Source of the DNA: an uncultured Gemmatimonadales bacterium
GTDB lineage: Bacteria > Gemmatimonadota > Gemmatimonadetes > Gemmatimonadales > GWC2-71-9
Length of the DNA stretch: 64,000 bases
Reading direction: 5' to 3'
Assembly (NCBI GenBank): GCA_963779755.1
Contig: CAVZZO010000001.1
Span: 32,001 to 96,000, forward strand
Positions 33,361 through 36,686 of the stretch are shown here, piece after piece. The position numbers and the translations under genes are program-made. The notes beneath the pieces were generated by a model. It ran no database searches. It had not been told where the DNA came from and was given only the letters and a program-made list of their open reading frames with translations. Position 1 is the first letter of the stretch. Every line of letters begins with the position of its first letter.

Positions 33361-36174
33361 CTAGGGCGTCGCTTCCGGCGCCTTCTTCTTGAAGTCACCC
33401 GCCTTCACGACCGTGAGTCGCGCCGGATCGAGGTACTTCTGCAACGCCTGCTGGATGTCCGCCGGCGTGAGCGCCTTGACCTTCCGTTCCATCGCGGCGT
33501 CCCAGGCCATGGTCCGGTCAAGGAAGAGCTGGTTGGCGAGACTGCCCGCCAGCTCGCGGTCCTGCGAACGGCTCACCTCGCGCGACTGCAGGTAGCCCTC
33601 CTTGGCCCTGGTCACCTCCTCCGGCGTGAACCCGTTCTTCACGGCCCGGGCGATCTCCTCGCGCATGGCCGTTTCCACCTTGTCCACGTTCTGCGGGGCA
33701 AAGATGGCATAGGCCTGGAAAATCCCGGTGGTGTCGATGGAGTTGGCGCCCAGTCCGGAGCCGACGCCGTAACTCAACCCTTCCTTCTGGCGAATGCGCA
33801 CCGCCAGCCGGGAATTGAGGAACCCGCCGCCCAGCATGTAGTTGCCCAGCACCAGGGCGGGATACTCCGGATTGTCGTCCCGGACGTGGAGGTTCTCGCC
33901 CACCAGCATGAAGGCGTTGGCCTTGTCGGGCGTGTCGATGCTGAGGGTCGTGGGCGGCGCGTCGTAGAACTCCGACGGCACCCGATCATACGACTTGGGG
34001 CTCTTCCAGCCCTGGAAAGCGTCGGCGACAATCTGCCGCACCGCGGTGCTGTCGAAGTCGCCCACCACGGCGATCTCGCCGGCGCCCAGGCCGTAGAAAT
34101 CCTGATAGAACTGCTTGACGTCATCCAGCCGCGCGTCGGTAATGGACTGGACCTGCTCCTCGGTGGTTTCCGCGTAGCGCGGATCGCCCTTGGGATAGTC
34201 CTGCAGATGCCGCCGGAACGCCTCGAACCCGCGGGCAACCGGCTCGCTCTTCTGGGATTCGAGCTGCGAGAGGCGCTCCTGCTTCAGCTCGTCGAATTCC
34301 TTGGCGTCGAAGGCGGGCTCCTTCAGCACCTCGGCCATGAGCCGCACGGCGGCCGGGAGATTCTCGCGCGTCGTCTCGATGGTCGCGGTGGCGCCGCTGA
34401 CGCTGCCGCTGATCAACGCGCGCGCCTTCAGGCGGTCGAACTCGTCCTTGATCTGCTGGCGGGTGTGATGCTGCGTCCCCCGCATCAACATGTCGCCGGC
34501 CAGGTCGCCCGCCGTCTCCCGGTTCATCAGGGCTGGCAGGCTGCCGAAGTGCAGCGACATCCGCAACTGCACCGAGTTGCCCCGGGTCTGCTTGGGCAGG
34601 AACGCGACCTTCAGGCCGCTCGCCAGGGTATCCCGGCGGGTGCGCCGGTCGATGTTCTGCGGAGACGGATCGAACGCCTCACCCTGGGCGAGAGTCGTAT
34701 CGCCCTTGTAGTCCTTCACCAGGGCGGCGACATCCGGCACCGGCGGGATCACCGCGCGGTCGGGCTTGGGCGTCGGGATGAACATGCCCAGCGTGCGGTT
34801 GGACGGTTTGAGGTAGGCCCGCGCCACCCGGAGCACATCGTCCGGCGTCACCTTCCGGATGCGGTCCCGGTTGATGAAGATGAGCCGCCAGTCGCCCATG
34901 GACCCCCACTCCGACAGATCCAGCCCCACCCGGTCGGAGGCGTTGAGCTCGAGGTCGACGTTCTTGAGCAGCGTTGCCTTGGCCCGGTCCACTTCCTCCG
35001 CCGTGGGCGGATTGGTCACCACGTCGTTCAGCGCCTGCTCCATGGCGACCCGGGCCGAGTCCAGCGACTGCTCCTGCCGGACCTGGGCATAGGCCAGCAG
35101 CACCCCCGGCTCCTTCAACTGGAAATCGAACGCGCCCGTCTCGGCGGCCAGTTTGGGCTCCACCAGCGCCTTGTAGAGGCGGCCTGAGGGGGCGTTCCCC
35201 AGCACCTGAGACAGCACGTCCACCGCGGCAAAGTCCGAGTCGGACCCGGCCGGCACATGGTATACCGCCATCGCGACCTGGACATCACCCACCCGGCGCA
35301 GCGTGACCGAACGCTCCCCGTCCTGGGTCGGCTCGGCGGTATAGGTGGGGTAGATCTTGTTGGCGCCGGTCCGGTCGGGACGGGGAATGGCCCCGAATTT
35401 CTTGACGATGAGCGCCAGCGTCCGGGCCGGGTCGAACTTGCCGGCCACCACCAGCTGCGCGTTATCCGGCTGGTAGTACTTGTGGTAGAAGGCCTGCAGC
35501 CGCTCGATGGGTACGTCCTCGATGTCCGAGCGGGCGCCGATGGTGGACTTGCCGTAGTTGTGCCACAGGAAGGCGGTGGAGAGGGTACGCTCCATGAGCA
35601 CGCCGAACGGGTCATTCTCGCCCGACTCGTACTCGTTCCGCACCACCGTCATTTCCGATTCGAGGTCCTTCTTGGCCACATAGCTGTGGGTCATGCGGTC
35701 GGCCTCGAGATCCAGCGCCCAGGCCAGGTTGCTGTCGGTGGCGGCGAAGGTCTCGAAGTAGTTGGTCCGGTCAAACCAGGTGCTCCCGTTGGGCCGGGCC
35801 CCATGCTCGGTCAGTTCCTGGGGGATGTCGGGATGATTCGGCGTCCCCTTGAACACCATGTGCTCCAGCAGGTGGGCCATGCCCGTCTCGCCGTATCCCT
35901 CGTTCCGGGAGCCGACGAAATAGGTGATGTTCACCGTGGCGGTCTGCTTGGACTGGTCGGGAAACAGCAGCACGATGAGCCCGTTGGGCAGCGTGTACTG
36001 GGTAATACCTTCGACGGTCGGGCCCTTGACTGCGCCGTTCTGCGACCGGGCCGCCGGGCGCGCCTTGGCAGCCGGTTGCTGGGCGGCGGCGGGCAGAGAC
36101 GCCGCCACGACCAGTGACAGAACCAGCGCCGCGCGAACGCGGAATGAGCCGGACGTCCCTCTGAATATGGACAT
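33361..36174 (-). CDS. Secreted M16 (pitrilysin/PqqL-like) zinc protease
   Basis: Inverted zinc motif HLLEH, NGSTWFDRTNY, VVRNE, IRQKEGLSYG; AGGAG RBS before MSIFRG. Confidence 0.95.
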   Translation of the reverse strand: MSIFRGTSGSFRVRAALVLSLVVAASLPAAAQQPAAKARPAARSQNGAVKGPTVEGITQYTLPNGLIVLLFPDQSKQTATVNITYFVGSRNEGYGETGMAHLLEHMVFKGTPNHPDIPQELTEHGARPNGSTWFDRTNYFETFAATDSNLAWALDLEADRMTHSYVAKKDLESEMTVVRNEYESGENDPFGVLMERTLSTAFLWHNYGKSTIGARSDIEDVPIERLQAFYHKYYQPDNAQLVVAGKFDPARTLALIVKKFGAIPRPDRTGANKIYPTYTAEPTQDGERSVTLRRVGDVQVAMAVYHVPAGSDSDFAAVDVLSQVLGNAPSGRLYKALVEPKLAAETGAFDFQLKEPGVLLAYAQVRQEQSLDSARVAMEQALNDVVTNPPTAEEVDRAKATLLKNVDLELNASDRVGLDLSEWGSMGDWRLIFINRDRIRKVTPDDVLRVARAYLKPSNRTLGMFIPTPKPDRAVIPPVPDVAALVKDYKGDTTLAQGEAFDPSPQNIDRRTRRDTLASGLKVAFLPKQTRGNSVQLRMSLHFGSLPALMNRETAGDLAGDMLMRGTQHHTRQQIKDEFDRLKARALISGSVSGATATIETTRENLPAAVRLMAEVLKEPAFDAKEFDELKQERLSQLESQKSEPVARGFEAFRRHLQDYPKGDPRYAETTEEQVQSITDARLDDVKQFYQDFYGLGAGEIAVVGDFDSTAVRQIVADAFQGWKSPKSYDRVPSEFYDAPPTTLSIDTPDKANAFMLVGENLHVRDDNPEYPALVLGNYMLGGGFLNSRLAVRIRQKEGLSYGVGSGLGANSIDTTGIFQAYAIFAPQNVDKVETAMREEIARAVKNGFTPEEVTRAKEGYLQSREVSRSQDRELAGSLANQLFLDRTMAWDAAMERKVKALTPADIQQALQKYLDPARLTVVKAGDFKKKAPEATP

Positions 36175-36248
36175 AGGTGCTCCTGGTGAGGCTCGTAACC
36201 TGTTACGGAATACAGTCAAGAAAGGGTCCCGGACCGGATGCCGCAAGC

Positions 36249-36279
36249 ACAAACAAATAGCCCCGCTTGCGCGGGGCTA
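36249..36279 (-). terminator. Intrinsic terminator
   Basis: TAGCCCCGC-GCAA-GCGGGGCTA followed by TTTGTTTGT on the minus strand. Confidence 0.8.
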
Positions 36280-36403
36280 CTCGAACCTCGGGCGGGGAGC
36301 CCGGGTTTGTTGAGCCGGCCGGTACAGCTTGGCCGCAACAGGAGGGATAAATGGCCGGCTCATTTGTGTCGCCGGCGCCCGAAGGCGCCGGAACCAACTG
36401 AAT
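36249..36403 (-). ncRNA. Candidate ~150-nt structured small RNA (or attenuating leader of the M16 gene)
   Basis: Four consecutive hairpins (cUUCGg loop; 10-bp stem with CCCUCCU in the loop; UCCCC loop; GCAA terminator) between a sigma-54-like promoter and a terminator. Confidence 0.65.
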
Positions 36404-36412
36404 TGATCTATC

Positions 36413-36429
36413 TGCCAACTGCGTGCCAG
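36413..36429 (-). promoter_or_regulatory. Sigma-54 (-24/-12) promoter
   Basis: CTGGCACGCAGTTGGCA, GG-N10-GC spacing. Confidence 0.65.
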
Positions 36430-36686
36430 ATCGCCATCTCGTTCCTCCGGCAGCAGATACGTGTGAGGGGGCTGGCCGGGACCCGTCCGCCGGTCTGGAC
36501 ATTTGAGGCGTCCGTCCGTCCACTACAGGACGGTGGATCCGGCCTGAACTCCTGCAGCCGCCCCTACACCCTGTTTGATGCCTGTCCGGCGGACAGGGTT
36601 GCATGTGCTATCCTCCGTAAGATTGCGGACTTGCACCCCGCTATATTGCCGGGAAGAACACCGCGCGGGACTACTCCTCTCTTGGC

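Follow-up and report, generated by a model that had tools for sequence, protein, structure and literature searches.

The Qrr small RNAs (sRNAs) of Vibrio depend on LuxO and sigma-54 for their transcription and need Hfq, whereas CpxQ is an sRNA that derives from the 3'UTR of cpxP. RsaE/RoxS of the Firmicutes and the CCUCCUCCC-loop sRNAs of the alpha-proteobacteria carry C-rich loops, which are a known base-pairing device of sRNAs, and are thought to work without a strong requirement for a chaperone. In this study, we analyzed a minus-strand locus at 36251-36402 of a 64-kb stretch of Gemmatimonadales DNA (hereafter the window, meaning the whole of that stretch) from the genome G000. A first-pass annotation had proposed a sigma-54-dependent sRNA with loops directed against ribosome-binding sites at this place.

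The locus resembles each of these systems in part. Like Qrr, its predicted product is a short RNA of several hairpins with its own sigma-54-type promoter, an upstream activator site, and an intrinsic terminator, and as in the narrow LuxO regulon, the exact combination of site and promoter occurs in G000 at the RNA locus only. Unlike Qrr, the RNA belongs to a different phylum, no Hfq gene was found in G000, and in most members of the Gemmatimonadales RNA family, the RNA forms the 3' end of a protein gene; neither sequence nor Rfam links it to Qrr. A likeness to CpxQ and other 3'UTR-derived sRNAs is seen in 14 of the 17 loci with a strong match to the RNA, where the RNA shares promoter and terminator with a gene encoding a small exported protein; the window copy differs from CpxQ in having no host gene, in its sigma-54-type promoter, and in the lack of homology. 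With RsaE/RoxS and the CCUCCUCCC-loop sRNAs, the RNA shares unpaired C-rich loop motifs that could pair with G-rich Shine-Dalgarno (SD) regions. However, it has no Rfam match to them, its architecture and lineage are different, and identity to the anti-SD sequence is not kept across the family. By Rfam, the RNA belongs to none of these groups.

The first-pass annotation could not assign the RNA to a known family, and a scan of the 64-kb window with Rfam 15 agreed with this, yielding no match at the gathering thresholds. The best subthreshold match was BjrC68 (RF02353, an sRNA of the Bradyrhizobiaceae), which, at 22.2 bits (E = 0.0036), fell short of its gathering score of 39. This match covers hairpin 3 and the terminator only (36315-36248) and consists mostly of the GC-rich terminator with its GCAA loop, and membership in BjrC68 was rejected. 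A decoy of the Csr/Rsm type was rejected as well: a search of the 97% complete G000 gave no CsrA (PF02599), and the loops are C-rich and contain no GGA. A weak match to RsmY (16.7 bits versus 57) lies on the opposite strand. Hfq (PF17209) was likewise not found in this 97% complete genome, whereas the control genomes were matched. The RNA family is new and restricted to the Gemmatimonadales lineage, although the kind of regulator is already known. The Gemmatimonadota are a widespread and little-studied soil phylum, and our literature searches, together with the Rfam scan of the window, turned up no described regulatory RNA from it.

Layout of the minus-strand unit

Its sequence features indicate that the region 36251-36402 on the minus strand is most likely the gene for a structured RNA of approximately 150 nt that has its own sigma-54 promoter and stands alone. 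The predicted RNA, supported by the fold and the covariance model, is about 152 nt in length (36251..36402, minus strand); it begins at the sigma-54 start and ends with the U tract. The first-pass annotation had listed a minus-strand -24/-12 motif, a start near 36402, three hairpins, and a terminator, and every one of these features is present. Promoter, noncoding RNA of about 152 nt, and terminator can all be read from the sequence, as a discrete and independent unit would have them.

Hairpin 1 (36372..36391, minus strand) reads CCGGCGCC-UUCG-GGCGCCGG; it is GC-rich and optional in the family. A comparable GC-rich hairpin precedes stem 2 in the loci L038, L056, L041, L043, L040, L046, and L048, and none was seen before stem 2 in the group of G015. 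In the stem-2 domain (36311..36362, minus strand), UGAGCCGGCC (36362-36353) pairs with GGCCGGCUCA (36320-36311) over 10 bp, as the first-pass annotation had read it; the stem comprises 9 bp in the family model, and the tenth pair is U36362-A36311. Enclosed by the stem are 32 nt, starting with AUUUAUCCCUCCUG: a single strand rich in pyrimidines, a small hairpin at the apex, and, on the 3' side, the segment GUACC. The CU-rich segment CAUUUAUCCCUCCU (36339..36352, minus strand) contains CCUCCU. Hairpin 3 (36284..36307, minus strand), AACCCGGGC-UCCCC-GCCCGAGGUU, has an outer helix that covaries and the loop UCCCC. It is followed by an intrinsic terminator (36251..36283, minus strand), recognized both in the sequence and by a terminator scan, with 13 pairs in GUAGCCCCGC-GCAA-GCGGGGCUAU and then UUUGUUUG.

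The predicted folding energy of a 157-nt RNA from this locus was -85.2 kcal/mol, compared with -58.6 ± 4.3 kcal/mol for 200 shuffled sequences (z = -6.2), and none of the 200 folded as well. In this predicted fold, the CU-rich segment remains single-stranded. The public sequencing runs listed for this sequence comprise one DNA run with a small share, from one soil study, and no RNA run.

Two reading frames overlap the unit on the same strand. One has 133 codons (36203-36604), with GGAGG before its ATG, and crosses promoter, RNA, and terminator; the other has nine codons (MAIWHAVGR, 36409-36437), with GGAGGA upstream, and overlaps the promoter. Both look like the chance frames of a GC-rich genome.

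The sigma-54-type promoter and its upstream inverted repeat

Sigma-54 promoters are characterized by GG and GC doublets 10 nt apart, in a context like TGGCAC-N5-TTGC. The candidate promoter TGGCACGCAGTTGGCA (36413..36428, minus strand) has the two doublets at this distance, with the -24 GG at 36427-36426 and the -12 GC at 36415-36414, and the usual spacing from the -12 element gives a predicted RNA start near 36402. In related loci, the promoter has the form TGGCACG-N4-T[G/C]GC, with TGGC or TCGC rather than TTGC at -12 in most of them. The strict pattern TGGCACGNNNNTKGCW has two matches in the 4.23-Mb genome. Because a reversed control pattern is equally frequent, also with two matches, the motif alone does not exceed chance, and the evidence for the promoter is comparative rather than drawn from the statistics of a single genome. 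Outside the window, the genome matches TGGCACGNNNNTKGCW exactly at one place (G000:C1:1000945-1000960, minus strand), which reads TGGCACGGTACTGGCA and has no GTCC-N8-GGAC in the 220 nt upstream.

The comparative evidence centers on an inverted repeat, GTCCAGACCGGCGGAC (GTCC-N8-GGAC; 36485..36500, minus strand), which was recognized by its conservation and which we presume to be the upstream activator site (UAS), that is, the binding site of a sigma-54 activator. In the window, 56 nt separate the repeat from the TGG of the promoter. An exact GTCC-N8-GGAC was present at -68 to -72 from the promoter TGG in 11 of 16 promoter regions, compared with a background of 0.0047 per 220 nt in G000, the genome of the window. 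When up to one mismatch in the repeat, a spacer of 52 to 56 nt, and a C in place of the first promoter T were allowed, the composite of repeat and promoter was found upstream on the RNA strand in all 18 related loci, namely, the 17 strong RNA loci and that of G246; the only extra match within these loci is a second real promoter in L040. The same relaxed composite has seven matches in the whole of G000, and the exact repeat together with TGGCAC is present only in the window copy. The significance of the promoter therefore comes from its positional conservation and from the upstream repeat in 18/18 loci.

The genome also encodes the proteins that such a promoter uses, with rpoN represented by one Sigma54_DBD match (215.6 bits) and with 17 matches to the Sigma54_activat domain. 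Together with the -24/-12 motif and the repeat at a fixed distance from it in 18/18 loci, these matches uphold the assignment to sigma-54 in the first-pass annotation. No activator-domain match lies inside the 64-kb window, and no activator gene was found near the RNA in five other genomes with long contigs (G150, G129, G081, G246, and G113). In G150, G129, and G081, the closest activator match on the contig of the RNA is approximately 39 kb or more away, and no closer match was found in G246 and G113. The predicted control module of GTCC-N8-GGAC and sigma-54 promoter can be used to trace the activator and its signal.

Two further GTCC...GGAC repeats are present on the minus strand of the window, CTGTCCGCCGGACAG (N3) at 36582-36596 and CGTCCTGTAGTGGACG (N6) at 36518-36533, which may be extra activator sites or chance occurrences.

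Conservation and genomic setting of the RNA

BLAST detected one relative of the RNA, in G015, among 40 other genomes. A covariance model built from the window and G015 sequences (R1) matched 23 of the 151 genomes of the same GTDB family, and a second model (R2), for which 19 full-length matches were used, matched 27 of the 151 (E ≤ 0.001). Strong full-length matches to R2, scoring 67 to 115 bits, occurred at 17 places in 16 of these genomes, and the next score was 34.7 bits; the RNA is thus strongly detected in a minority of the family only (16/151). In a sample of the order, matches were obtained in 9/61 genomes of the GTDB family f1, in 2/62 of f2, and in 1/27 of f3, those in f2 and f3 being weak. 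The model match in the window covers 36238-36372, and the RNA is a single copy in G000. A candidate second copy at G000:C3:537667-537848 was rejected, as its weak matches are to a terminator after an unrelated gene.

A 23-base pattern taken from hairpin 3 and the terminator was found at seven places in a collection of 185,579 species, all in metagenome-assembled genomes (MAGs) of Gemmatimonads. A looser DNA pattern, GGCTCCCCGCC-N1-4-GGTTCGA, had at least 119 matches in many phyla and was set aside because they are mostly due to chance; of 80 loci with this pattern, the model confirmed four, all from Gemmatimonadales or Gemmatimonadota MAGs. Every named contig that carries the RNA is likewise from a Gemmatimonadales or Gemmatimonadota MAG. 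Two of the contigs have model scores equal to those of G156 and G081, which places the GTDB family of the window within the Gemmatimonadales.

In the alignment of 19 sequences, 95.9% of the cells were paired, compared with 83.1% for shuffled alignments and 31 to 48% when the partners were slid by one to three columns; the alignment was fitted to the structure of the model, which inflates the percentage paired. Both sides had changed in 25 of the 33 base pairs, and none of 500 shuffles equaled this number. The changes on both sides involve eight of the nine pairs of stem 2, in which 98.8% of cells are paired, and nine of the 13 pairs of the terminator, in which 99.2% are paired. G-U pairs are frequent, with 13 sequences having one at a single terminator pair; read on the opposite strand, they would appear as A-C mismatches, which assigns the structure to the minus strand, as originally proposed. 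Homologues and covariation, which the first-pass annotation had named as a check on structural conservation, thus both favor the structure, and the locus offers a well-supported new RNA family.

The substitutions also bear on a coding function. A short frame begins with an ATG at 36363, and the RNA could in principle encode a small peptide, for example, from the 28-codon frame that begins at the stem-2 AUG. However, neither this start nor its frame is conserved, with other members stopping after two to three codons or having no ATG, and no conserved reading frame was found in the RNA across the aligned members. The substitutions track base pairing rather than codons, and we regard a peptide as highly improbable. 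From the conserved fold and promoter, the locus very probably produces a functional RNA transcribed by sigma-54.

A gene for a small secreted protein rich in Arg and Asp immediately precedes the RNA in 14 of the 17 strong loci: the RNA follows its stop codon directly, with the reading frame ending anywhere from 87 nt upstream to 5 nt downstream of the point where the model match begins. Four shorter and weaker forms of the RNA (L049, L050, L052, and L055) occupy the same position after the protein gene. This linkage to a protein-coding gene, of which the RNA makes up the 3' end in most relatives, had escaped the first-pass annotation. The proteins have 113 to 180 residues and show, by eye, an N-terminus like that of a signal peptide, an Arg/Asp-rich tail, and the motifs RRVVVVER, APRVIVVERV, and PGLREVxVYERDGRYYRD; the genes at L038:1660-2109(-), L041:1109-1486(+), and L044:1039-1494(+) are examples in the alignment. 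No Pfam match was found for this family, and its 88 relatives in the database are all unnamed or annotated as "hypothetical protein" and, where an organism is given, come from Gemmatimonadales. With 60 of the 151 family genomes carrying it (a count that includes the unpublished G014, on which no other result depends), the protein gene has a wider distribution than the RNA. When 29 protein loci were searched with filters off, 10 had a strong and six a weak full-length RNA match directly downstream, and in most of the others, the matches near the gene's 3' end were no larger than a terminator. In most loci, a sigma-54-type motif immediately precedes the protein gene. This uncharacterized family, to which the locus draws attention, appears to be under sigma-54 control.

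The neighbors of the window copy are divergent genes for a 6-pyruvoyl-tetrahydropterin synthase (PF01242; 36687..37202, plus strand) and, after it, a pterin-4a-carbinolamine dehydratase (PF01329; 37219-37575, plus strand), and, downstream of the RNA and outside its unit, an M16 peptidase gene (PF00675 and PF05193; 33361..36174, minus strand). The start of the pterin-synthase gene and an AATATAG box are common to L039, L040, L041, L044, L045, L046, and L047. Judged by this shared gene order, the divergent pterin gene marks the window locus as syntenic with the protein-plus-RNA loci of the relatives. The box itself (CTATATT on the plus strand; 36641-36647) lies about 40 nt before the ATG of the pterin-synthase gene, is kept at the same place in at least seven related loci, and probably serves the divergent pterin operon as its -10 element.

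The M16 peptidase gene, whose ATG is most plausibly at 36174, follows the terminator of the RNA by 76 nt, and this proximity on the same strand had led the first-pass annotation to offer, as an alternative, a terminating leader (attenuator) that controls the peptidase. The comparison with relatives speaks against it: by eye, the element is absent from the upstream regions of all nine M16 orthologues inspected (two of them short, 295 and 131 nt, at contig ends), the RNA and the M16 gene of G015 are on separate contigs, and the downstream neighbors of the RNA vary from locus to locus. No alternative antiterminator fold was seen in the RNA, and we consider such a leader very improbable. Upstream of the M16 orthologue at L010 (G066:C1), short tandem repeats of the type GGTGGTAGGTGGTAAGTGG are present between two genes.

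The window retains the repeat, the promoter, and the divergent pterin neighbor of the protein loci, but it has no coding sequence between promoter and RNA, so that the predicted start from the promoter falls about 10 nt before hairpin 1. A protein profile search of G000 (97% complete) gave no homologue. The RNA of the window thus does not sit right behind a stop codon, as a 3'UTR-derived sRNA would, in contrast to that of 14/17 strong loci in relatives. Similarly, the locus of G154 consists of repeat, promoter, about 190 nt, and the RNA, with no match to the protein gene, whereas that of its congener G246 consists of repeat, promoter, protein gene, and RNA. The sole DNA similarity between the region upstream of the RNA in G154 and the protein gene of G246 is a 33-nt match far upstream, which gives no support there for a simple deletion in place. 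A third arrangement was found in G002 (L040 1392-2380, G002:C46), where promoter 1, the RNA, and its terminator are followed, after about 125 nt, by promoter 2 (TGGCACGAGGTTCGCT), the protein gene, and a plain terminator; RNA and protein gene each have their own sigma-54 promoter there.

These arrangements also bear on whether the element is a cis-acting 3' module, a stabilizer and terminator of the secreted-protein mRNA, of which the window copy would be a functionless leftover. Its position directly after the stop codon in 14/17 strong loci and in the four weaker forms would be expected of such a module. However, in three genera (G000, G002, and G154), the copies that lack the coding sequence still have the complete structure together with promoter and repeat, and in G002, the RNA has its own promoter upstream of the protein gene, which ends in a plain terminator. 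A purely cis-acting role is accordingly quite unlikely in our view, and that the RNA stands alone in the window suggests that it has a job of its own.

By parsimony, rather than from a species tree, the simplest reading of these loci is an origin of the RNA within the 3' end of the protein gene, after which it may have become autonomous more than once; the direction, with loss of the coding sequence, is taken from the wider spread of the protein gene. We tentatively suggest, as a possibility that falls short of an even chance, that the RNA is here the only output of a dedicated sigma-54/activator pathway, a 3' tail that was freed while keeping its activator site and promoter, and that this happened more than once (in the genus of the window, in G154 versus G246, and in the split in G002). 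If true, the loci would be a natural record of a 3'UTR element becoming an autonomous regulator, in a phylum for which our searches of the genome and of the accessible literature gave neither an Hfq gene nor a described sRNA. Because related genomes carry the RNA in both 3'UTR-embedded and free-standing forms, the autonomous function of a 3'UTR element is directly testable here.

Loops, candidate targets, and proposed mode of action

The first-pass annotation had described the loops as C-rich and complementary to ribosome-binding sites. The C-rich character holds across the family: the loop of hairpin 3 has CCC in 19/19 aligned members, with GGCUCCCCGCC identical in 12/19, and in every member, pyrimidines predominate in the 5' part of the stem-2 interior (e.g., UCCUACC, CCCUCC, CCUUCC, and UUCCCAC). 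Inspected by eye, the alignment shows a YCCYNCC-like segment kept inside stem 2. The complementarity to SD sequences does not hold to the same extent, as the anti-SD core CCUCC is present in the stem-2 interior of only 4/19 members. The 16S rRNA of G000 ends in ...GGATCACCTCCTTTCT, and the CCUCCU of the window is identical to its core, which is the longest such identity among the members.

In the mechanism that we propose, a putative enhancer-binding protein would bind to GTCC-N8-GGAC, 52 to 56 nt upstream, and switch on the sigma-54 promoter, as the conservation of both sites suggests. Transcription would end at the strong intrinsic terminator, and the RNA of about 152 nt would accumulate. 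In most relatives, the same repeat and promoter would drive the secreted-protein gene, of which the RNA forms the 3' end, and in the genome of the window, the coding sequence would have been lost. The RNA may then pair in trans through two conserved C-rich elements, the pentaloop with CCC in hairpin 3 and the pyrimidine-rich strand of stem 2; in the window, the latter reproduces the anti-SD core CCUCCU. By this reading, which does not assume Hfq, it would presumably block the translation of mRNAs by pairing with their G-rich ribosome-binding regions. We slightly favor this statement in its entirety, that is, a stand-alone RNA that depends on sigma-54 and an activator and acts in trans by base pairing; for the pairing with mRNAs taken by itself, the chances appear even.

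Alternatively, the C/U-rich loops could recruit or titrate an RNA-binding protein instead of pairing with mRNAs. The conservation of GGCUCCCCGCC in hairpin 3 beyond what pairing would need (12/19 identical) is consistent with such a protein-binding or decoy RNA, as are the variation of the stem-2 pyrimidine motif without maintenance of SD complementarity and the lack of a convincing mRNA in target searches of the genome. However, no candidate protein is known, neither CsrA nor Hfq was found in G000, the loops contain no GGA, and C-rich loops are known as a pairing device. We therefore consider protein binding unlikely and retain base pairing in trans as the working explanation.

Target prediction from the loop sequence, which the first-pass annotation had recommended, did not identify an mRNA. 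Its statement that CAUUUAUCCCUCCU is the exact complement of AGGAGGGAUAAAUG, a stretch of SD, spacer, and AUG, is correct by construction, but this complementarity is specific to the one genome and has no perfect target in it: AGGAGGGATAAATG has no second copy in G000, and no perfect target of the window loop was found there. A genome-wide scan by seed and duplex in G000, made without gene annotation, gave noise dominated by in-frame GTGs inside genes. Ten other places in G000 match the complement of the loop with up to two mismatches, and one of them is the start region of an HU-like gene (G000:C1:2266770), which serves as a lead only.
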